Assembly: GCA_019634005.1 (NCBI GenBank)
Contig: JAHQWD010000002.1
Coordinates: forward strand, 128,747 to 192,746
Source: Candidatus Kaiserbacteria bacterium
GTDB taxonomy: Bacteria; Patescibacteriota; Minisyncoccia; Phycocordibacterales; UBA918
Direction of reading: 5' to 3'
DNA: 64,000 nucleotides
Numbering within the stretch: the first letter of the stretch is position 1; each line of letters begins with the position of its first letter. The notes beneath the pieces were generated by a model, which was not told where the DNA came from, did not search any database, and was given only the letters and a program-made list of their open reading frames with translations. A program made the translations under genes and the position numbers. Positions 6,125 through 16,977 of this stretch are shown here, piece after piece.

Positions 6125-9100
6125 TTGTCAAACCGTATATACTCTATGCACTATACAAAATATATCTTTAGTCTCACCCTCCTTTTCTTTGCTGTTACTT
6201 CAGTGTACGCACAAGAGGAGGAGTTTGAGGGCATACTTATCGCCGATGTGGGAGTACAAAATGCTTCTGTGGTGTATCAAGAGGGGCATACGCTTGATGT
6301 TTTCTTCGAGTTAGTTAACGGTGAAGCAGTGCAGCCAAATATTCGCTATGCAGTGCAGGTCGTAGAAGCGACCGAAGAAGGGGATCGGATATGGGGAGAA
6401 TACACACCAGATGATGTTATCTCGCTCGCATCGAATGAACGCCTCCACAGAAATATTACTTATACAGCGCCTGCATGGCTTGATGGTATCTATGAGGTAA
6501 GGGTTATTGTAGAGAACACCGCAGGACTTCCTTTAGGCTCCGCGTTTCTTGGTGAGGTTATGTTCTCGGGAACGGGGCAGTATGTGGAGATAGACCCAGA
6601 TTCTTGTGATGTCCTCTATGATTACGAGACACCAGTGTCCCTCACCTGTCTTGCAACGAATTATTTTGACACGACACTCGATGTATCACCGCTTTCCGAG
6701 GTGTATCGAAAGACAACACGCGGGGAAGGGGTTGGGATGTTTTGGGATGAAGCAGTGCGCTATACTTTTGGCGCGGGAGAGACGAAAGAAGTAGAATTTG
6801 TGTTTGCACCACAGCCAGGATATGGAACATACGCAGCACATGCACTTCTTGTAGGCGCACAAGGTGCAGACGTTTCAAATAGAGTGCCGTATACATATAG
6901 TACGTATGCATCACCTGCGCAGATAGAGAATATTACCGCAAATGCATCGGGATATGATGAAGATGATGAGGCGGTTATTACTGTTGCGTATGCTGCTGAC
7001 GAGACAGTATTCTTTACACTTGAACTTACCGATGAAGATGGTCGTCTGTGTAGCGAACCAATTACCGATGTTCGGTTGGCATATACAGAGTCTGTGTATA
7101 CAGCGCGCACTATCATTGATCGTTCCTGTGAACATCCGACAGCATCAGTCTTCTTGACCGCAGGTACTGGCGACGTCGTTGACGCGAGTACAATCTATCT
7201 CTCTGGATTACAGGAAGAAACGGGGAGGCTCTCTTTTAGAGATTATATGATCATACTTGCCGTCATTGTTATACTTATTCTTGCATATATGCTCTATCGT
7301 CACACACACAAGGCACGTAATACAGAGACCCTGACCCTCAGTGTTCTGTTTGTAGTGCTTGCATTTGGATTCACTACCCATTTTGCCGAGGCAGGATCTT
7401 GGAGTAGTGGCTCTTCTATCAGTGGGTGTCGAAATAGCCTGCAGGGGAACATTAACAAAAGCACCTATGAACCAGGTGAGGCAATCAGAGTCTCAATGAG
7501 AACATCGGTATCCTGTAATTCGTCCGCGACCGTGAATGGTGTCCCAATTGGTTCTGTAGGAAGTCTTAAGACAAAAATGTATACAAACACGTCTGGATCG
7601 AGTGATTCTCGAACGGGCATCAATGGTAATGGATACGGAGGAAGACTTGCGAATGGTTGTTGTTGGGGAACCACACTCACTGCTCCAGGTAGAGCAGGAA
7701 GTTACAATACAAACTTTAGATCTGTTAACTATACTCAAGAGGGAACAGGGTATTCTTCAGGACGTGGTCCTGCTCCTCGGCGGTATGTAAGTCATGGAAG
7801 TATTCGGGGAAGTGAGAGGTATCGAGTAGTTGCTACGACTCCTCCTGCGCCGACCGCGTCACTTACGGCAAGTCCTTCATCTATAGAGCGGGGAGATGAG
7901 ACAACGTTGCAGTCACGATGTACAAATAGCACGAGTGCTTCGATAAGTCGTGGTGTTGGCTCAGTTTCCTCATCGACTGATAATACCGATGTTTCTCCTA
8001 CACAGAGAACGACCTATACGCTTACCTGTAGTGGTCCTGGAGGAAGTGACAATGACAGCACAACAGTTATTGTGACCGAACCTCCCGTGCCCGCTCCAAC
8101 TGCGTCACTTACGGCGAGTCCTTCATCGATTCAGGAAGGGAATAGCACCCGCCTTATTGCTCGATGTACCAATAGTAATGCGTCATCAATTAACAATGGT
8201 GTGGGAAGCCTCTCTGCGACAGGGGGGAGACCAGTTGTCTCACCTAACTCTCCGACGACGTATAGGCTCACTTGTTTTGGAGAAGAGACCGACGCAGTTG
8301 CGACCACGCGAGTCCGCGTAACTGCGACACCTCCACCTCCACCAGCAGCACCACATGCATCAATCTCTGCTTCCCCACGAAGAATCCAAGAGGGAGAGAG
8401 TACGCGGGTCCACTGGAGTTCTTCAAACGCGGTGGAGTGTCGTAGTACATCAAGTCCACTTACCACAGGAGGTGATACAGAGGGGACTCAGAACATAACC
8501 CTCAACAGAGCACAGACAAAGACCTTCAGTATCGTTTGTGAAAATAGCGCTGGTGACACAGACAGTGCCTCAACACAAGTCACTGTTGAAGAACCGAGCG
8601 AACCAAGTGGCCCAGGATCAAGTCCTTCGCCAACGGCGACACTTGAAGTGCGCAATACTACTGGAGGAGGAGGTTGGACGTCGTCAAATATCACCATTCT
8701 TCCAGGAGACCAGATTGCGTTGCGGTGGGATTCTACCAATGCAAGTGCTTGTAGCGGAAGCAATTTCAACACAGGCAGAGCGGATGACGGAACAACAACG
8801 AGTGTAAACGAACCAACCGGGGGTAATCGTACGACGTATGCGGTGACGTGTACGGGTTCTGGCGGAAGTGACTCCGATTCACTTCGTGTTACCGCACAGG
8901 GTCTCGAGCCAGATCTATCCATTTCAGATGAGGATGTACGTCAGGGGGAATCAGTGACACTTACGTACAATATGCAAGGCAACGATCCTTCTCAGTGTTC
9001 CCTTGTTGGCCCAGGCGTCTCCTACATTGCAGGATCCTTTAGTCAACAGTCAGGATCCATTGCAATCACGATTTCTGGAGACTCGACGTTTACCCTGACC

Positions 9101-9160
9101 TGTCCAGGAGGATTTGCAGAGGCGACCGTAGAACTCATTCCAGTCATCTTTGATTCCTAG
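6125..9160 (+). CDS. Giant cell-surface protein, paralog B. Signal peptide, then a ~370-aa N-terminal domain, then an internal 2-TM hairpin, then Ig-like two-Cys tandem repeats and the conserved C-terminal module (ends PVIFDS).
   Basis: 1011-aa ORF. Residues ~375-1011 parallel ORF 48..2300, including its TM hairpin and the INKSTY segment. The last ~180 aa are about 60% identical. Confidence 0.6.
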   Translation: MSNRIYSMHYTKYIFSLTLLFFAVTSVYAQEEEFEGILIADVGVQNASVVYQEGHTLDVFFELVNGEAVQPNIRYAVQVVEATEEGDRIWGEYTPDDVISLASNERLHRNITYTAPAWLDGIYEVRVIVENTAGLPLGSAFLGEVMFSGTGQYVEIDPDSCDVLYDYETPVSLTCLATNYFDTTLDVSPLSEVYRKTTRGEGVGMFWDEAVRYTFGAGETKEVEFVFAPQPGYGTYAAHALLVGAQGADVSNRVPYTYSTYASPAQIENITANASGYDEDDEAVITVAYAADETVFFTLELTDEDGRLCSEPITDVRLAYTESVYTARTIIDRSCEHPTASVFLTAGTGDVVDASTIYLSGLQEETGRLSFRDYMIILAVIVILILAYMLYRHTHKARNTETLTLSVLFVVLAFGFTTHFAEAGSWSSGSSISGCRNSLQGNINKSTYEPGEAIRVSMRTSVSCNSSATVNGVPIGSVGSLKTKMYTNTSGSSDSRTGINGNGYGGRLANGCCWGTTLTAPGRAGSYNTNFRSVNYTQEGTGYSSGRGPAPRRYVSHGSIRGSERYRVVATTPPAPTASLTASPSSIERGDETTLQSRCTNSTSASISRGVGSVSSSTDNTDVSPTQRTTYTLTCSGPGGSDNDSTTVIVTEPPVPAPTASLTASPSSIQEGNSTRLIARCTNSNASSINNGVGSLSATGGRPVVSPNSPTTYRLTCFGEETDAVATTRVRVTATPPPPPAAPHASISASPRRIQEGESTRVHWSSSNAVECRSTSSPLTTGGDTEGTQNITLNRAQTKTFSIVCENSAGDTDSASTQVTVEEPSEPSGPGSSPSPTATLEVRNTTGGGGWTSSNITILPGDQIALRWDSTNASACSGSNFNTGRADDGTTTSVNEPTGGNRTTYAVTCTGSGGSDSDSLRVTAQGLEPDLSISDEDVRQGESVTLTYNMQGNDPSQCSLVGPGVSYIAGSFSQQSGSIAITISGDSTFTLTCPGGFAEATVELIPVIFDS

Positions 9161-10568: not shown

Positions 10569-11366
10569 TTATCGTCGTGCAAAGAGGGTCGTTAACAAAA
10601 AGAGGAAGAGTGCAACAAGGACGATAACTCCTCCAGTTGCGAGATCGAAATAGAATGAAAGAAGCATACCTGAGGTAACAGAAAAGAGGGATACAAACTC
10701 TGCGTAGAGTAGTGTGCGTAAAAAACTCTGCTTTAGTTGGAGTGCGGCAAGTACAGGTATGACAATGAGTGCGGAGATAAGAAGGATCCCCACTACAGGA
10801 ATAGCAAGAGAGATAGTGACTGCCGCAAGGATAATGAGGACGGTATTTAGTAGTCCAACAGGGATGCCAGAGACACGAGCATATTCCTCGTCAAACGCTA
10901 TCGCGATTAGTTCTTTGTAGAAAATGAGTACGAGCACCGCTACGACAACGGCGAGAACGGCAATGACGTAGATGTCAGTTTGGGTCACGGTTACAATACT
11001 CCCAAAGAGATAGTTAAAAAGGTTTGAGGTAAACCCTTTTCCAAGAGAAAGCAGTACGGTCGCGATGGCAAGACTCCCTGAGAGAAAGAGTGCAAGTGCA
11101 GATTCTCCGTAGAGACGTTTTGTTGCACGAAGTCGTTCAAGGCCAAGTGACGACAATACCGTGACACCAAGTGCGGTGAAGAAAGGATTCATGTTTGCAA
11201 GAAGACCCACAGCGATACCCGCAAGAGAGGCGTGTGCGAGCGTGTCGGCAATAAGGGAATACCGACGAAGTACGAGAAAGATGCCGATAAGGGGTGCAAT
11301 GAAACCGACAATGAGTCCTGCCTCAAATCCACGAACGATAAAACTATAGGTGAAGATCTCAAACAT
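10569..11366 (-). CDS. znuB: Metal (Zn/Mn) ABC transporter permease, ABC-3 family
   Basis: 265 aa, 8 TM. It shares the N-terminal ABC-3 permease pattern and sits in an operon with the ATPase and SBP. Confidence 0.8.
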   Translation of the reverse strand: MFEIFTYSFIVRGFEAGLIVGFIAPLIGIFLVLRRYSLIADTLAHASLAGIAVGLLANMNPFFTALGVTVLSSLGLERLRATKRLYGESALALFLSGSLAIATVLLSLGKGFTSNLFNYLFGSIVTVTQTDIYVIAVLAVVVAVLVLIFYKELIAIAFDEEYARVSGIPVGLLNTVLIILAAVTISLAIPVVGILLISALIVIPVLAALQLKQSFLRTLLYAEFVSLFSVTSGMLLSFYFDLATGGVIVLVALFLFLLTTLFARR

Positions 11367-11369
11367 AGA

Positions 11370-12089
11370 TTAATGGTGATGTGCTTGTATGCCGTATTCT
11401 TCTGGCGTTTCATGAAAGAAGACGGTGCAATCGACGCAAGCAATATGCATCGCTTCATGGGCAACAGACTCAAGATCATGAGTAACCAACACCACAGTCA
11501 ATTCCAACTCCTCGTTTAGTTTCTTGATTAGTGCATAGAACTCTTCTCGAATCTCCTGTTCTACTCCCACGGTTGGCTCATCGAGGAAGAGTACTTCTGG
11601 ACGACCAGCAAGGGCTCGGGCGATAAAGACACGTTGTTGCTGTCCACCAGAAAGCGATCCAATTTGCCGATCACGATACGCTTCCATATCAACAGCAGCA
11701 AGCGCATCGGTGACTGCGGCCATATCTCGCTCATCGGTTGTGCGAAAGAGTCCACGCCCATGTCGCCCCATCAGCACAACTTCTTCGACTGTAGCAGGGA
11801 AGGAGGGGTCGAACGAAGTTGCTTTTTGTGGCACATACCCAATACGGGCATGTTCTGTAAACTTCCGAATATCTTGTCCAAAAAGACGAACGGTACCGTT
11901 CGTTGGTTTCATCAAGCCTAAAATAATTTTCAGGAGTGTTGTTTTTCCAGAACCATTGCGTCCTACGATAGCAAGGTAGTCTCCTTTGTGGATTGAGAAA
12001 GAGACATCATGAAGCACCTCATATTCTCCGTAGGAGAATGAGATATTTTCAAGTTCAATAATATTTTCCGAGTGATCAACTGCAGGCAT
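11370..12089 (-). CDS. znuC: Metal ABC transporter ATP-binding protein
   Basis: Walker A GRNGSGKTT, signature LSGGQQQRV, Walker B LFLDEP. The ATG at 12089 lies 2 nt after the znuA stop. The track ORF begins at an upstream GTG at 12104. Confidence 0.8.
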   Translation of the reverse strand: MPAVDHSENIIELENISFSYGEYEVLHDVSFSIHKGDYLAIVGRNGSGKTTLLKIILGLMKPTNGTVRLFGQDIRKFTEHARIGYVPQKATSFDPSFPATVEEVVLMGRHGRGLFRTTDERDMAAVTDALAAVDMEAYRDRQIGSLSGGQQQRVFIARALAGRPEVLFLDEPTVGVEQEIREEFYALIKKLNEELELTVVLVTHDLESVAHEAMHIACVDCTVFFHETPEEYGIQAHHH

Positions 12090-12091
12090 GC

Positions 12092-13096
12092 CTATAGTGT
12101 ACACCCAAGGGCCTCAGTGAGACTATCGAGGTTTGCGTACATCACTGTAAAATATGTTTCACCATGATCCTGCTCTTCCGCAGTGAGTCCTCCGAGTGGA
12201 TTGAGCACCAATGTCTCTGCACCGATTTCTTGTGCAAGTGTTTCTGCGAGACGAGGGGATACCAGTGTCTCAAAGAATACGTGAGTTACCCCATGCTCTT
12301 CTGCAAATGTACTGATCTCTGCAAGGTCTGCAGCCGATGGTTCCGCTTCTGGCGAGAGACCGCTAATAGGAAGTTGTTCGAGTTCGTATGCTTCTGCTAG
12401 ATACCAGAAGGCGTCATGTGAGGTTACGATAGTCCGTGAGGTACATACAGAGAGTGCATTGCGGTAGTCTGCATCAAGCGTCTGCAGTTTTGCGATAAGT
12501 GCACTGGCATTTTCTCGATAGATAGACTCATGCGCAGGATCAGCCAGTACGAACCCTTTCACAATTTCTTCCACCATGAGCATTGCTTTCTCTGGAGAAA
12601 GCCAGACGTGCGGATCAAGTCCTTCGTGGTGATGTTCTTCCTCCTCATGCTCGTCTTCATGATCGTGATCCTCATGTTCATCATGATCTTCTTCGTGCTC
12701 GTGCATTTCGTCTTCGTGATGTTCCTCCTCCTCAAATTCCCGAGTCATGAAGTCTTCACCTGCAAGTACGATGACAATCTCGTCAGCAGAAAGATTTTCG
12801 AGTACATCATGTTCCCATGGCTCAAAGCCACCGCCGTTAAGAATCAATACATCGCTCTTCTCCATAGTAATGATGTCCCGTGGAGTAGGTTCATATTCAT
12901 GTGGTTCTGCTCCCGCAGGAACAACATTGTGTATATCTGCATATTCGCCACCAATCTCAGAGGCAAAGAAATAGAGGGGATAAAAACTAGTGACCACAGA
13001 AAGTTCGTCGGTATGTTCGGTAGGAGTATCCATATACGACGCTACCCCAAAACCGATAACAAGCACGACAACAAGAAATATAAGTATGTTTTTCAT
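12092..13096 (-). CDS. znuA: Metal ABC transporter substrate-binding protein with a His/Glu/Asp-rich flexible loop (ZnuA-like)
   Basis: 334 aa. The loop HHEDEMHEHEEDHDEHEDHDHEDEHEEEEHHHEG is typical of ZnuA. An N-terminal signal is present. Confidence 0.8.
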   Translation of the reverse strand: MKNILIFLVVVLVIGFGVASYMDTPTEHTDELSVVTSFYPLYFFASEIGGEYADIHNVVPAGAEPHEYEPTPRDIITMEKSDVLILNGGGFEPWEHDVLENLSADEIVIVLAGEDFMTREFEEEEHHEDEMHEHEEDHDEHEDHDHEDEHEEEEHHHEGLDPHVWLSPEKAMLMVEEIVKGFVLADPAHESIYRENASALIAKLQTLDADYRNALSVCTSRTIVTSHDAFWYLAEAYELEQLPISGLSPEAEPSAADLAEISTFAEEHGVTHVFFETLVSPRLAETLAQEIGAETLVLNPLGGLTAEEQDHGETYFTVMYANLDSLTEALGCTL

Positions 13097-13099
13097 AGA

Positions 13100-13507
13100 T
13101 TAACTACATGATTTACAAAGCCCGAAGAACTCCAGGGAGTGCCCAGTAATGGATGCGAACCCTCGTGCCTCTTTGAGTGCATCGCGAGAGAGTAACTCCT
13201 CGTGACATGAGGATACATCTGCAATTTTATGGCACGAGGTGCAGACAACATGATGATGTCCGTGACCATCAGGGGCAAGTTCATAGGAGATACTTCCCGT
13301 TCCAAGATTCACTTCCTTCACGATTCCTGCTCCTTTTGCTGCATCAATGATGCGGTATACCGTCACAGGATCAACAACGGCACCCAGTTTTTCTGCAATC
13401 TCTGAGATAGAGATAGGCACACGTTGTTGCTCGAGAAATGAAAGGACTGCAATACGTGACTTTGTCGCGCGAAGTCCAGAGTCTCTAAGAAGGGAAACAA
13501 TATCCAT
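13100..13507 (-). CDS. zur: Fur-family metalloregulator, likely Zur
   Basis: DNA-binding helix region, HHHVVCTSCH and C-terminal CKSC metal sites. Start taken at the ATG 13507 (MDIVSLLRDSGLRATK). A start at 13621 would place the operator palindrome inside the CDS. Confidence 0.7.
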   Translation of the reverse strand: MDIVSLLRDSGLRATKSRIAVLSFLEQQRVPISISEIAEKLGAVVDPVTVYRIIDAAKGAGIVKEVNLGTGSISYELAPDGHGHHHVVCTSCHKIADVSSCHEELLSRDALKEARGFASITGHSLEFFGLCKSCS

Positions 13508-13515
13508 AATCGGAG

Positions 13516-13552
13516 TGTATAGTACCTGCAAAAAAATTGCAAGTACTATACA
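13516..13552. promoter_or_regulatory. 16-5-16 inverted repeat (TGTATAGTACCTGCAA aaaaa TTGCAAGTACTATACA, 1 mismatch). Candidate Zur/Fur-type operator in the divergent promoter region.
   Basis: Seen directly. It is immediately upstream of the zur start and within the 120-bp gap to the divergent thioredoxin-like gene. Confidence 0.5.
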
Positions 13553-13629
13553 CAGGGTAATGTTAAGTCTGCTTGACATGTCCGAAGTGAACGCTATCAT
13601 AGAGTCATTAGTGATAAGCACATATATCT

Positions 13630-14217
13630 ATGAAAGGTTTTGGAACAGTGGGGTGGATTATTCTTGTGGCAGTTATCCTTGGAGGAGGATACGCACTTAC
13701 TATGAACTCTAGTGAAGAGAAGATGGAGTCCATGGAGCATGATTCTATGATGGAGGAGGACGCTATGATGTCTGAAGAAGACAGCATGATGATGGAGAAA
13801 GAAGACGCAATGATGGAAGATGGTTCCATGATGATGGCAAAGTACGAAGGAGCGGTGCTTGCGGGAGGAGAGTCACCACTTCTTGATTTTGTGCAGTCAG
13901 ACTATGAGAAAGCACTCGCAAGTGACAAATTGGTGGTGCTGTATTTCTACGCAACATGGTGTCCATTTTGTAGGGAAGAGGCGGGAAATGCACTCGAGCC
14001 AGCATTCAGCGAACTTGAAGGGGATGATGTCATTGGCTTCCGCGTGAACTATAATGATGGAGATACGGATGAGTACGAAAAAGCACTGGCACGAGAGCAT
14101 GGGATTGCATACCAGCACACAAAAGTCTTTATTAAAAATGGTGAGCGTATCCTCAAAGCACCCGATACCTGGGATAAAGAGCGGTATCACACTGAGATAA
14201 CAAACGCACTCAAGTAA
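13630..14217 (+). CDS. Membrane-anchored thioredoxin-like protein (WCPFC) with an N-terminal Met/Glu/Asp-rich low-complexity segment
   Basis: TM helix, (M/E/D)-rich ~45 aa, then a thioredoxin fold motif LVVLYFYATWCPFCREE. Confidence 0.6.
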   Translation: MKGFGTVGWIILVAVILGGGYALTMNSSEEKMESMEHDSMMEEDAMMSEEDSMMMEKEDAMMEDGSMMMAKYEGAVLAGGESPLLDFVQSDYEKALASDKLVVLYFYATWCPFCREEAGNALEPAFSELEGDDVIGFRVNYNDGDTDEYEKALAREHGIAYQHTKVFIKNGERILKAPDTWDKERYHTEITNALK

Positions 14218-14219
14218 CT

Positions 14220-14924
14220 ATGACCACAAGTCTTATCATTGGAGCATTCATCGGCGGGCTGGTTTCCTTCCTTGCCCCCTGCGTGCTCCCACTCATTCCA
14301 GGATTCCTTGCGTACCTTGCGGGGAGCAACACTGACGCAACGGGGAGGGGGCAGCGAGAGATATTCATCAACAGTGTCTTCTTTGTCCTTGGGTTCTCTA
14401 TAGTCTTTGCACTCCTTGGGGTACTTCTCAACACCATCCTTGAGAGTATTGCATACGATGTGCAGATATGGCTGTCTCGTATTGGGGGTGCACTCATTAT
14501 CTTCTTTGGGCTCTACCTCGTGGGACTAATCCGCATTCCATTCCTCGAGCGAGAGCATAAGATGAGCGTTAAGACAAAGTTCTCTTCACGGTATCTTACG
14601 TCACTTCTCTTTGGATTTGCGTTTGCAGCAGGCTGGACACCGTGTGTCGGTCCTGCGCTTGGAGTGATTCTTGGGCTTGCAGCAACGCAGCCAGGAAGTG
14701 CATTTCTCCTTCTCTTCACCTATTCCCTTGGACTCGGTATCCCATTCCTTATTGTTGGTGCGTTTACGGGTAAGGCGACAGCGTTTATTACTCGTCACGC
14801 ACGTGCACTCAAAATCGTGAACATCATATTTGGCGCAATTCTCCTTGCACTCGGTGTCCTCATCTTTACAAACAAACTCGCACTTATTGCGAACTTCGAG
14901 TTCCTTAATAACTTCCTTATCTAA
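14220..14924 (+). CDS. ccdA: Cytochrome c-type biogenesis / thiol-disulfide transporter CcdA (DsbD family)
   Basis: 6-TM protein with the two conserved Cys motifs LAPCVLPLIPGF and GWTPCVGPALG. Confidence 0.75.
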   Translation: MTTSLIIGAFIGGLVSFLAPCVLPLIPGFLAYLAGSNTDATGRGQREIFINSVFFVLGFSIVFALLGVLLNTILESIAYDVQIWLSRIGGALIIFFGLYLVGLIRIPFLEREHKMSVKTKFSSRYLTSLLFGFAFAAGWTPCVGPALGVILGLAATQPGSAFLLLFTYSLGLGIPFLIVGAFTGKATAFITRHARALKIVNIIFGAILLALGVLIFTNKLALIANFEFLNNFLI

Positions 14925-14926
14925 CT

Positions 14927-16006
14927 ATGCGACCGTATATTCTTGTAGCAGTACTGATTCTGATTGGTGGAGCAATCTGGTTTCTTGAAAGCCAGAGTTC
15001 TGACAGAACATCACTCGCGGATGTCGTGTCACTGACACCACGGACGCTCGATTCTGAAGAAAAGGCGAAGATATATCCAACAGCAAAGGAGATCACCTCT
15101 CCTGATGGCTTCATCAATACCGATGAAATCGCTATTGGAGACCTGATTGGAAAGAAGGTTATTCTTGTAGATTTCTGGACGTACAGTTGTATCAACTGTC
15201 AGCGGACATTCCCGTATCTCAATAGTTGGTATGAGAAGTACAAAGATCAAGGACTTGAAATTGTGGGTATTCACACACCAGAGTTTGAGTTTGAAAAGAA
15301 GTACGAGAATGTGCTTGCGGCAACTGAGCGGTTCGACATTAATTTCCCCGTGGTGCTTGATAACGACTTTTCTACCTGGACTGCATACCAGAATCGGTAC
15401 TGGCCTCGGAAGTACCTGATCGACATAGATGGGTACATCGTCTATGACCATATCGGGGAGGGGGCATATGAAGAAACTGAGAAGAAGATTCAGGAATTAT
15501 TGAAGGAGCGCATGGAAGTGCTCGGAGAGGAAGGAGAAATTGTTGGAGATCTCACCGAAGAAGTCACCAAAGCATCTCGTCCAGACAGTCCAGAAATATA
15601 TTTCGGTGCGTGGCGGAATGAGCATTTCGGAAGTGGACCCCAAAATGCAGTTGGGTCTCAGTCTTTCTATGCACCGGAGGAAGTGAAGTTAAATACACTC
15701 TACTTTGATGGTGTCTGGAGTATTACGGAAGAATATTCGGAAAATGTCACTGCTGGTGGGAAGATTATCTTCCGCTTTAAGGCGAGTGAAGTGAACTTCG
15801 TTGCGGGTGCAGAGACTCCTGTGCGTGCGAAGGTGCTCGTTGATGGTGTTCCTGCAAATGGGCGCGACGTAGATGGGGAGGGGTATATCACGGTGGATGA
15901 GGAACAACTCTACAATCTCGTGTCTTCCGAGGAGAAAGAAGAACATACGATAGAAATTATTCCAGAGAGTCCAGGATTACAGGCGTTTACGTTTACCTTT
16001 GGGTAG
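14927..16006 (+). CDS. TlpA/ResA-like thiol-disulfide oxidoreductase, membrane-anchored, with an extra C-terminal domain
   Basis: FWTYSCINCQRTFPYL aligns to the ResA WASWCEPCKKEFPYM motif. An N-terminal TM is present. Confidence 0.6.
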   Translation: MRPYILVAVLILIGGAIWFLESQSSDRTSLADVVSLTPRTLDSEEKAKIYPTAKEITSPDGFINTDEIAIGDLIGKKVILVDFWTYSCINCQRTFPYLNSWYEKYKDQGLEIVGIHTPEFEFEKKYENVLAATERFDINFPVVLDNDFSTWTAYQNRYWPRKYLIDIDGYIVYDHIGEGAYEETEKKIQELLKERMEVLGEEGEIVGDLTEEVTKASRPDSPEIYFGAWRNEHFGSGPQNAVGSQSFYAPEEVKLNTLYFDGVWSITEEYSENVTAGGKIIFRFKASEVNFVAGAETPVRAKVLVDGVPANGRDVDGEGYITVDEEQLYNLVSSEEKEEHTIEIIPESPGLQAFTFTFG

Positions 16007-16413: not shown

Positions 16414-16496
16414 CGGAGGAGGTGGGACTCGAACCCACAAGCGGTTTCCCGCGACGGTTTTCAAGACCGCTCCGATACCATTCCGGGCACTCCTCC
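16414..16496 (-). tRNA. tRNA-Ser (anticodon TGA), type II with a long variable arm. CCA not encoded.
   Basis: Manual fold: acceptor GGAGGAG/CTCCTCC, anticodon loop CTTGAAA, T-loop TTCGAGT. Overall similar to E. coli tRNA-Ser. Confidence 0.75.
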
Positions 16497-16521
16497 AAGG
16501 CTCACATACTACACTAATTCA

Positions 16522-16977
16522 TCATTTTTTTAAATAGTGTTCTTTCGCATGGCAGTTTGGGCATAAGAGTTCTAAATTGGAAAGAGAATTGTGGTCTCGG
16601 TTCCTATCTATGTGGTGGACTATCAGTATCTCTAAAAGGTCATAATTACAGCGTTCGCATTGTGCTCCTCGTTCTTTTACGATTCGAGCCTTCAAAGAAC
16701 GTTGGGTCTTTACGTTATCTTTAAGGCGTCCCGTTTTATATGAGATTCCAGCACGGTTTTTATTTGCGCACCGTCTACTGCACGTTTTCTTGTTTGCACT
16801 TGCGAGTATTGGTTTCTTACAGATGAGACAGGGGTGTTCTTTTCTCTGAGACTTTCCATAACAAGTCTGGCTGCAAAAAAGACCACGTGTACTTCTTTTT
16901 ATTTCTGCTGGACGACGATAGATCTCTTTTCCACAAACGGTGCACGTAGTATTAGGTTTTCTTCTATGCTCAGACAC
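16522..16977 (-). CDS. HNH endonuclease with zinc-ribbon motifs
   Basis: Several CxxC pairs, plus an HNH core ILIVHHIDRNRDHN…LLCPNCH. Confidence 0.65.
   Translation of the reverse strand: MSEHRRKPNTTCTVCGKEIYRRPAEIKRSTRGLFCSQTCYGKSQRKEHPCLICKKPILASANKKTCSRRCANKNRAGISYKTGRLKDNVKTQRSLKARIVKERGAQCERCNYDLLEILIVHHIDRNRDHNSLSNLELLCPNCHAKEHYLKK

Follow-up and report, generated by a model that had tools for sequence, protein, structure and literature searches.

Why does a Candidatus Kaiserbacteria bacterium keep three thiol-redox genes in one tight operon, and what could their products be doing on the outer face of its membrane? The genes lie in a stretch of 64,000 nucleotides of contig JAHQWD010000002.1 (assembly GCA_019634005.1), which was analyzed as a whole and is called the window here. 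They encode an atypical membrane-anchored thioredoxin (gene 1), the thiol-disulfide electron transporter CcdA (gene 2), and a homolog of the C-terminal region of DipZ (gene 3); the gene numbers also denote the products below (Table 1). A first-pass annotation had described a Met-rich WCPFC thioredoxin, CcdA, and a ResA/TlpA-like CINC protein in this order, and its layout was correct: the three open reading frames (ORFs) run in one direction, 2 nt separate each stop codon from the next ATG, and Pfam matches agree with all three gene identities. A copy of gene 1 with the same sequence is on record from Candidatus Kaiserbacteria. We consider it highly probable that the trio forms an extracytoplasmic reducing relay that depends on CcdA and serves two anchored thioredoxin-fold clients, and that this relay is found throughout the Parcubacteria and is unrelated to cytochrome c maturation. 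Its purpose may be to defend the envelope against copper and oxidative stress, the Met-rich tether of gene 1 acting as a Cu(I)-capturing arm beside a reduced Cys/His site; we propose this tentatively and give it slightly less than an even chance.

Each protein of the trio has exactly one cysteine pair (C111/C114, C21/C142, and C88/C91 in genes 1, 2, and 3, respectively). A single hydrophobic anchor is predicted at the N-terminus of both gene 1 and gene 3, and about six hydrophobic segments in gene 2. Gene 2 matched the Pfam model DsbD_TM (PF02683) with 64.9 bits against a cut-off of 27.1, over model positions 3–215 of 219. C21 and C142 are its only cysteines, each in a Pro-Cys motif, and both motifs are kept in all 74 gene 2 orthologs compared; in CcdA/DsbD the two essential cysteines occupy Pro-Cys motifs in TM1 and TM4 of a six-transmembrane core, a pattern to which gene 2 conforms.

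Gene 3 consists of an N-terminal transmembrane (TM) anchor, a TlpA/ResA-like thioredoxin domain with its cis-proline retained (RYWP), and a C-terminal β-sandwich domain that contains no cysteine. It matched the Pfam families Thioredoxin_8, AhpC-TSA, and Redoxin, plus Thioredoxin_10 (PF17991) at the C-terminus, and the CINC motif was present in 62 of 62 orthologs. A phmmer search of the PDB found Mycobacterium tuberculosis DipZ (5cyy, E 8e-52; 2hyx, E 1e-51) over query residues 51–359. This match spans both soluble domains, and the active site W-x-Y-S-C-I-N-C-Q-R is identical, whereas ResA, YkuV, SOQ1, and NHLRC2 matched the thioredoxin part only and much more weakly. The "extra C-terminal domain" of the first-pass annotation can now be named as the C-terminal domain of DipZ. 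Pfam describes PF17991 only as the thioredoxin-like C-terminal domain of DipZ, and we know of no experiment that has established the function of DipZ. An Msr (methionine sulfoxide reductase) activity of the SOQ1 type in the C-terminal domain of gene 3 was considered and rejected, since the domain lacks cysteine.

The N-terminal part of full-length DipZ is a membrane domain of the CcdA type. Because gene 3 corresponds to the soluble region of DipZ and gene 2 to its CcdA-type membrane domain, genes 2 and 3 are, by their predicted domains, DipZ encoded as two genes. M. tuberculosis DipZ (Rv2874) shares with gene 3 the TlpA-like thioredoxin domain, the C-terminal β-sandwich, and the identical active site, but its CcdA domain is fused to them, while here the two parts are separate genes with a 2-nt spacer. 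Also unlike DipZ, the trio always has a third partner upstream, the Met-rich atypical thioredoxin.

This arrangement is widespread. A survey of one genome per GTDB species yielded 268 loci that encode a relative of gene 1, of which the best 80 (L008–L087) were examined in detail; the context analysis covered 87 loci, L001–L003 being the window's organism and one close relative. CcdA was encoded immediately downstream of the gene 1 relative in all 73 loci with enough sequence, and the DipZ-like gene lay downstream of CcdA in 60 of 65 (55 adjacent, 5 with one gene inserted). Gene 3 has at least 7987 homologs; the best 120 are all stand-alone proteins of 330–416 aa, none with PF02683, and every one of these that has a source name is labeled as a member of the Patescibacteria group. 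The best 80 loci are mostly from metagenome-assembled genomes (MAGs) of Patescibacteria/Parcubacteria, and the trio is a signature module of the Parcubacteria (Patescibacteria). A few MAGs carry gammaproteobacterial or archaeal labels ("uncultured Gammaproteobacteria," "archaeon," or "Aenigmatarchaeota"; L020, L045, L052, L059, L062, L079, L084, and L086) while their trio context is typical of Parcubacteria, so that these labels probably reflect mis-assignment or contaminated bins.

CcdA and ResA-like proteins have a role in cytochrome c maturation in Bacillus, and gene 3 has a sub-threshold match to ResA (77 bits; cut-off, 170), which together would suit a System II pathway with gene 3 as the apocytochrome reductase. 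However, gene 3 is nearest to DipZ and not to ResA, and no CcsA/ResC-type WWD motif, CcsB/ResB, CxxCH apocytochrome, or multi-heme (multi-CxxCH) protein was found in the window or among the 1430 genes of the 80 loci, which are a part of each genome only. CxxCH motifs in the window are confined to a Fur-family protein and an HNH endonuclease. On these scans we rejected cytochrome c maturation, which the first-pass annotation had also expected less; there is hardly any chance that the trio has this role.

The other client, gene 1, passes the Pfam Thioredoxin model (32.6 bits; cut-off, 23.5), and its AlphaFold2 model has a predicted local distance difference test (pLDDT) score of 95–98 for residues 70–195. 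Its best structural matches by Foldseek are classical thioredoxins and DsbD-gamma, with target-normalized TM-scores of 0.75–0.85 for the top thioredoxin matches. C111 and C114 are its only cysteines, both in WCPFC. In a HMMER alignment with the thioredoxin 2j23, His163 stands opposite the cis-proline ("QHT" vs "MPT") and Tyr105 opposite the buried aspartate, Asp26 of Escherichia coli ("VLYFYATWC" vs "VIDFWATWC"). These replacements are near-invariant in the family: among 132 aligned representatives, His was found at the cis-proline position in 131 and Tyr at the Asp26 position in 124, and a glutamate three residues past the second cysteine (Glu117 in gene 1) in 131. Gene 1 thus has the classical thioredoxin fold but neither the cis-proline, the buried aspartate, nor the WCGPC motif, and it scored only 28.9 bits with the TrxA model TIGR01068 (cut-off, 96.8); all of the NCBIfam thioredoxin and DsbE models stayed far under their cut-offs. 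The cis-proline is conserved more strongly than CxxC across thioredoxin-fold groups, and peroxiredoxins have a catalytic arginine at this position (PMC2757866). Citing Su et al. (2007), the same paper credits the cis-proline with keeping the CxxC thiolates from binding metal. Because the changes from cis-proline to His and from buried Asp to Tyr are near-invariant, gene 1 is unlikely to be an ordinary disulfide reductase; its predicted Cys-Cys-His(-Glu) cluster might instead bind metal or hold an activated thiolate.

Sco/SenC proteins, like gene 1, have the thioredoxin fold and a membrane anchor that holds them at the outer face, and two of their cysteines together with one histidine can bind copper; the Sco motif is CxxxC and the fold has a peroxiredoxin-like insertion, while gene 1 has CxxC. 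A Sco- or TlpA-like fold for gene 1 was rejected, as the Foldseek matches led to classical thioredoxins and DsbD-gamma; no Sco protein was among the top 50 (thioredoxins, DsbD-gamma, and PDI), and the Sco family models (SCO1-SenC of Pfam, and NCBIfam) gave no match. As an aside, the atypical thioredoxin is encoded twice, in tandem or close by, in two loci (L029 and L066), in L029 with a second, partial thioredoxin–CcdA pair, which indicates local duplication of the module.

The anchor of gene 1 is joined to its thioredoxin domain by a Met/Glu/Asp-rich linker, which contains MESMEHDSMMEEDAMMSEEDSMMMEKEDAMMEDGSMMM. It has 14 methionines in 40 residues, compared with 2.1% Met over the 73 ORFs of the window (binomial P ~4.5e-14), and no other ORF of the window exceeds 7 in 40. 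The linker is predicted to be disordered (pLDDT 51–58, no secondary structure). It is a degenerate repeat of 6–8 residues with the family consensus [DE][GDE][DE]-A-M-M-[EK]-[KE], and the DNA at 13732–13817 shows degenerate tandem repeats with periods of 18 and 21. Across the family, linkers are composed of 18% M, 16.5% E, 11% D, and 11% K, with only 0.5% His and 0.2% Cys; they hold 540 MM dipeptides, against 250 ± 13 in shuffled sequences (2.2-fold, z about 23), and successive Met runs are separated by 6–8 residues. The repeat matched no Pfam or NCBIfam model, even at E ≤ 1, and a curated family for it, such as the MxKDx pentapeptide-repeat family, was discarded on the same grounds.

How general the linker is was judged from an unbiased search, with the thioredoxin domain alone as query (linker excluded), of 1.84 billion cluster representatives, from which linker Met was counted in 142 cluster representatives, accessory domains in a set of 150, and active-site residues in the 132 aligned representatives mentioned above. 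At least 8% Met upstream of the thioredoxin domain was found in 44 of the 142 and less than 5% in 75, the low-Met linkers being Pro/Thr/Ser/Glu-rich spacers or other domains. A Met-rich linker occurs in about 27–31% of the 50%-identity clusters, and in the best 80 species loci the linker has at least 10% Met in 52. The first-pass annotation had named a lack of the Met-rich stretch in orthologs as part of what would tell against its reading; the stretch proved to be common in them, though not universal. Two further linker types were seen. A Met-containing repeat, (K/P)DGTM(V/I), occurs in P0127, P0142, P0068, and L079; it matches Pfam DUF6799 (35 bits in P0142) and is unrelated to the A-M-M-E-K repeat. 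A Cys-rich module, C-x3-A/x-K-x-CPDGS-x-V-x-R-x-GP-x-CEF-x2-CP, occurs in P0107, P0168, P0199, P0203, P0213, and L081.

The case for copper comes mainly from what else occupies the linker position. Cupredoxin_1 is the commonest accessory Pfam domain there (5 of the 150 proteins), ahead of Copper-bind (3, in the same proteins), RskA_C (3), DUF6799 (2), and FKBP_C (1). Type-1-like H...C...H...M ligand sets are present in P0135, P0137, and P0185, and P0177 has a CuA-type CxxxCxxxHxxM motif together with a COX2 match. Two orthologs inside canonical trios are a fusion of CopC, plastocyanin, and thioredoxin (L053) and a fusion of cupredoxin and thioredoxin (L043). The cupredoxin and CopC domains are often flanked by Met-rich segments, and in P0135 and P0185 a cupredoxin domain occurs together with the Met-rich repeat itself. 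L019 and L044 have a separate gene directly upstream of the trio with a Met-rich segment and a weak cupredoxin match, and a bona fide Met-rich cupredoxin is encoded 5 kb from the trio in L066. Of all the evidence, these domain substitutions speak most strongly for a copper-handling function at the linker position. The possible copper function raised by the first-pass annotation gains independent, if indirect, support from the cupredoxin and CopC domains that replace the linker in orthologs and from the change of cis-proline to His. We also noted an inserted domain of about 110 residues with a conserved "PQP(S/A)HIH" motif, which recurs within linkers or in a gene of its own upstream and is flanked by Met-rich repeats (P0017, P0100, P0118, P0135, and P0244; L058 9641–10594; L009 9049–9642; L044 8963–9868). 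Its assignment as CHRD was not accepted, the matches being sub-threshold (E 0.001–0.008).

Disordered copper-capture modules are known. CopI, a cupredoxin-like protein, has disordered His/Met-rich modules that capture copper (PMC13308877), and in E. coli copper stress oxidizes the Met ligands of the copper chaperone CusF, which periplasmic MsrP then repairs (PMC9302797). The modules of CopI and CusF, the Mets motifs of Ctr1, and the Met-rich inserts of CueO and PcoA resemble the linker in being disordered, Met-dense, extracytoplasmic, and on or beside cupredoxin-like domains, and the proposed role of the linker would share with CusF oxidation-sensitive, Msr-dependent Met ligands (PMC9302797). 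Unlike these modules, however, the linker has MM pairs every 6–8 residues in an acidic/lysine context with 0.5% His, a spacing that differs from MxxM/MxM (Ctr1, CusF, and PcoC) and from MxxH. Our literature searches did not turn up a Met-rich copper-capture segment coupled to a thioredoxin domain.

Several observations weigh against a copper role. The Met-rich linker is missing in about 70% of family clusters, and the Met-rich state does not follow the similarity of thioredoxin domains: nearest-neighbor concordance was 0.61, against 0.61 ± 0.05 for random assignment. A single evolutionary origin of this state was rejected on this result, and the linker must therefore have been gained and lost often, as an accessory rather than core element; it is dispensable for the core function. 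Its MM-x5-6-MM spacing, without His, departs from the Cu(I) motifs MxxM and MxM. Foldseek groups the gene 1 domain with classical thioredoxins rather than with Sco, and the cupredoxin matches in L019 and L044 are under the Pfam cut-offs. RskA_C (3), FKBP_C (1), DUF6799 (2), and CHRD-like domains at the linker position give no hint of copper; for FKBP, the hint is rather of a part in protein folding. The 64-kb window contains no copper ATPase, cupredoxin, or Msr gene. P1B-type ATPases occur within 10 kb of the trio in 4 of 80 loci, about the chance level, and for this reason a copper ATPase neighborhood was dropped as evidence for copper. Finally, most of the MsrA proteins encoded near the trio have no TM or signal segment and are not direct clients.

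The lability of the linker also leaves room for a plainer function, in which the trio would be a generic reductive or isomerase pathway for exported cysteine proteins, analogous to DsbD–DsbC or CcdA–ResA/StoA, and the linker a mere spacer through the wall. Linker composition is variable, with half of the clusters P/T/S/E-rich, the trio is near-universal in Parcubacteria whatever its neighbors, the β-sandwich domain of gene 3 resembles a binding module, and the FKBP-type peptidyl-prolyl isomerase fusions in P0172 and L077 suggest a folding role. On the other hand, a regular MM-x5-6 repeat with 18% Met recurs across lineages, which drift alone is unlikely to produce, the near-invariant replacement of the cis-proline and the buried aspartate argues against an ordinary disulfide reductase, and cupredoxin remains the commonest accessory domain. 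We regard such a generic pathway as unlikely.

MsrA and MsrB are the most frequent neighbors of known function. MsrA is encoded near the trio in 11 of 80 loci, five of which have it as the next gene after gene 3 in the same orientation, and MsrB in five, including TM-anchored forms that adjoin the trio in L051 and L082; the order trio-msrA-msrB occurs in L012 and L059. By chance, a single-copy gene should directly adjoin the trio in far fewer than one of 80 loci. These neighbors point to repair of methionine sulfoxide (MetO) or of oxidative damage as a link equally concrete as copper, one that the first-pass annotation had not considered. In Streptococcus pneumoniae, CcdA and the Etrx proteins supply an extracellular Msr (PMC3914529), and this CcdA–Etrx–MsrAB2 system is a precedent for a reading in which CcdA-reduced thioredoxin proteins feed a surface Msr, with the tether as an oxidant sink or Msr substrate. 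Like the trio, CcdA1/2–Etrx1/2–MsrAB2 operates in a monoderm-type envelope, with CcdA and surface-anchored thioredoxin-fold proteins encoded together. SOQ1 (7djj, E 5e-21) has a thioredoxin domain similar to the one in gene 3, and a preprint ascribes to SOQ1 a lumenal Msr activity with CcdA as the proposed donor (10.1101/2024.11.01.621559).

Nevertheless, we find this Etrx-type reading doubtful. The Etrx proteins are TlpA/ResA-like lipoproteins with a normal cis-proline, unlike gene 1, and the Msr partner of S. pneumoniae is exported and always present, whereas the Msr neighbors of the trio look mostly cytoplasmic: a TM-anchored MsrB was found in 2 of 80 loci and a cytoplasmic-type MsrA or MsrB adjacent to the trio in about nine more. 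A cytoplasmic MsrA could neither serve the relay nor repair an external tether. No Msr gene is nearby in 69 of 80 loci, Msr adjacency is independent of the Met-rich state (linker Met is 0% in L082 and 5% in L081), the C-terminal domain of gene 3 lacks the cysteines of its SOQ1 counterpart, and the cupredoxin/CopC fusions and the change of cis-proline to His are left unexplained. Because most of the MsrA proteins have no membrane anchor, they indicate a shared stress regulon rather than direct clients. The signals for copper and for Msr can be reconciled, because under copper stress the Met ligands of CusF become oxidized and need repair by a periplasmic Msr (PMC9302797).

The closest working analog of the trio is Scs (suppressor of copper sensitivity), in which ScsB is accompanied by the membrane-anchored ScsD and by ScsC; Cu(I) is bound by ScsB as well as by ScsC, and cells gain protection from copper and peroxide (PMC10907172, PMC8900818). 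In Scs of Salmonella, Caulobacter, and Proteus (ScsABCD), as in the trio, a DsbD-type reductase feeds two envelope thioredoxin-fold proteins encoded in the same operon, and ScsD is a membrane-anchored, TlpA/CcmG-like protein; we propose the same logic for the trio. The likeness lies in the architecture and does not extend to orthology: ScsB has all three domains of a DsbD-like protein, ScsC resembles DsbA/DsbG and has a cis-proline, and Scs has neither a Met-rich tether nor a His at the cis-proline position.

In the mechanism that we propose, cytoplasmic thioredoxin would supply electrons, and CcdA (gene 2) would use its single cysteine pair to carry them through the membrane to two membrane-anchored thioredoxin-fold proteins on the outer face. 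Gene 3 would be the canonical client, a TlpA/ResA-type reductase with the β-sandwich domain that is fused to CcdA in DipZ. Gene 1 would be the second, atypical client, in which the exchange of buried Asp for Tyr and of cis-proline for His on a classical thioredoxin fold may create a Cys-Cys-His(-Glu) cluster at the active site. Suspended on the disordered Met-rich repeat, this domain would be kept reduced by CcdA, and the tether could capture soft metal (Cu(I)) beside the thiol/His site. In this way the trio would, much like ScsBCD in Salmonella, protect and repair the envelope during copper and oxidative stress, with Met oxidation and its repair as part of the same stress biology. For this relay we infer the direction of electron flow, the first recipient of the electrons, the binding of copper, and the physiological substrates, whereas the gene identities, the conservation of the operon, the relation to DipZ, the unusual active-site residues, the repeat and predicted disorder of the linker, and the copper-domain fusions and Msr neighbors in orthologous loci come from the comparisons above.

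A bolder proposal is that the gene 1 family, which we call "YQHTK" thioredoxins, constitutes an unrecognized class of copper-handling thiol oxidoreductases, with a Cys2His(Glu) copper site on a thioredoxin scaffold, fed by CcdA, and with an interchangeable Met-rich, cupredoxin, or CopC arm. Its members might act outside the cytoplasm as Cu(II) reductase, Cu(I) chaperone, or Cu(I) buffer, in a core envelope function of Parcubacteria; we offer this as speculation that is rather improbable in its full extent. CcdA, the soluble region of DipZ, and the thioredoxin fold are known already, and the relay logic has precedents in Scs, Etrx, and DipZ. What appears to be new is a two-gene DipZ with a third partner as a Parcubacteria-wide operon, and a thioredoxin family with His for cis-proline, Tyr for Asp, and the interchangeable arm. 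Our literature searches found no paper that describes this operon or family in Parcubacteria/Patescibacteria.

Parcubacteria, of the candidate phyla radiation (CPR), are abundant, uncultivated, and have minimal genomes. Because the operon is retained in at least 268 species-level genomes, it is likely to be important for their envelope biology. The trio is a clean natural example of a two-gene DipZ, and in the gene 1 family the most conserved non-cysteine residue of the thioredoxin fold is systematically His, a change of the kind for which mutant studies led the field to propose that metal binding becomes possible. If the copper role is correct, organisms with no outer membrane and few detoxification genes would couple cytoplasmic reducing power to extracellular defense against copper and oxidants, and the thioredoxin superfamily would gain a new design of metal site. 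If it is not, the family still provides natural linker swaps (Met-rich, cupredoxin, CopC, FKBP, and RskA_C) on one catalytic domain.

A different purpose is brought to mind by the immediate neighborhood of the trio, where a Fur-family gene and, behind it, znuACB are oriented divergently across a shared intergenic region of 122 nt. The first-pass annotation had placed the trio next to a Zur-controlled promoter; in a zinc-starvation regulon under Zur, the relay could, for example, reduce cysteine zinc sites of exported proteins or of ZnuA, and the Cys2His site could in principle bind Zn(II). The Fur-family ORF was originally listed as 13100–13621, with a GTG start at 13621 that nearly abuts gene 1; the likely start is the ATG at 13507, as the gene called in an identical Logan contig (L001; 135 aa) and the homolog in the relative L002 point to a protein of 135–136 aa. 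Its best NCBIfam matches were the PerR and Fur models, all under their cut-offs, and the name "Zur" comes from context only, because these scores cannot separate Zur from PerR or Fur. The intergenic region contains a palindrome, the core of which (CTTGCAAAAAAATTGCAAG) is kept in L002. It lies 8–46 nt upstream of the likely Fur-family start codon and 20–58 nt upstream of the −35 element of the trio, and may be the operator of the Fur-family regulator. The predicted promoter of the trio is 30 nt upstream of the ATG of gene 1, and its TTGACA region is kept in L002, while sigma-70-like sites in the region are no more numerous than expected from shuffled sequence.

Zinc control of the trio is very improbable on the following evidence. 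Palindrome and promoter do not overlap, so that the palindrome misses the predicted −35/−10 elements, and no Zur box was recognized. Adjacency to Zur–ZnuABC was found only in L001–L003 among the 87 loci; two other Kaiserbacteria (L060 and L071) are without it, none of the 80 other species has it, and in L012 and L076 the association is limited to a ZnuA gene at most about 5 kb from the trio. A conserved multi-TM protein of about 121 aa precedes the trio instead, on the same strand, in 37 of the 80 species, and an XRE-type HTH_3 gene (about 70 aa) stands ahead of this membrane protein in 25. Methionine, moreover, is no zinc ligand. We therefore rejected the coupling to zinc and Zur, the adjacency being lineage-specific and the palindrome outside the trio promoter. 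An acidic, His-rich loop is typical of zinc-specific cluster A-I binding proteins; ZnuA has a long one (EEEEHHEDEMHEHEEDHDEHEDHDHEDEHEEEEHHHEG), and this loop is the true zinc-related low-complexity segment of the locus.

Table 1. Positions in the window of the trio, its motifs and domains, and the neighboring zinc-uptake genes and intergenic elements.
Feature	Position	Strand	Basis or remark
Gene 1, atypical membrane-anchored thioredoxin, 195 aa	13630-14217	+	Single N-terminal TM segment, Met-rich linker, C-terminal thioredoxin domain
Met/Glu/Asp-rich linker, residues ~25-70 of gene 1	13702-13839	+	Composition, repeat, predicted disorder
Thioredoxin-fold domain of gene 1, residues 71-195	13840-14217	+	pLDDT 95-98; Foldseek
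WCPFC, residues 110-114 of gene 1	13957-13971	+	
His163 at cis-proline position of gene 1	14116-14118	+	HMMER alignment
Gene 2, CcdA (DsbD-beta-type transmembrane thiol-disulfide electron transporter), 234 aa	14220-14924	+	PF02683
C21 of gene 2 (APCVLP)	14280-14282	+	
C142 of gene 2 (TPCVGP)	14643-14645	+	
Gene 3, homolog of DipZ C-terminal region, 359 aa	14927-16006	+	phmmer vs PDB; PF17991
CINC, residues 88-91 of gene 3, within WTYSCINCQR	15188-15199	+	
Thioredoxin_10 (PF17991) domain of gene 3, residues 221-359	15587-16006	+	116 bits
Sigma-70-like promoter TTGACA-16-TATCAT, 11/12 matches	13573-13600	+	Consensus match only
Inverted repeat GTGTATAGTACCTGCAA-N5-TTGCAAGTACTATACAC, 17-nt arms	13515-13553	.	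Candidate operator
Fur-family regulator, likely ATG 13507, 135 aa	13100-13507	-	Pfam FUR; context only
ZnuA	12092-13096	-	Pfam ZnuA
ZnuC	11370-12104	-	Pfam ABC_tran
ZnuB	10569-11366	-	Pfam ABC-3

The XRE-type HTH gene and the membrane protein of about 121 aa (L004 7438–7996; L006 7418–7968; L066 8305–8670; no Pfam family above cut-off) look like a dedicated regulator/sensor pair, which is absent from the window. Among the 80 loci, glutaredoxin/NrdH-like genes were also found in 6 and DUF3179 in 5, and DoxX and DUF1360 recur; the 64-kb window has none of these four. DUF3179 (PF11376, 267 bits) is encoded between CcdA and the DipZ-like gene in two loci (L013 11304–12311; L027 11282–12289) and near the trio in three further species, which links this domain to the pathway.

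Elsewhere in the window, the HNH endonuclease (16414–16977, − strand, 151 aa), which has several CxxC motifs resembling zinc ribbons, lies between the trio and ruvX and is adjoined by a tRNA gene (16414–16496); the relative L002 has no copy at the same position, which suggests that it is a mobile insertion. A protein of 1011 aa with repeated Ig-like modules rich in Ser/Thr/Pro, a signal-like segment at the N-terminus, and a TM segment in its interior is encoded at 6125–9160 (+ strand); it has no Pfam match on record in L001 or L002 and is probably a surface protein.

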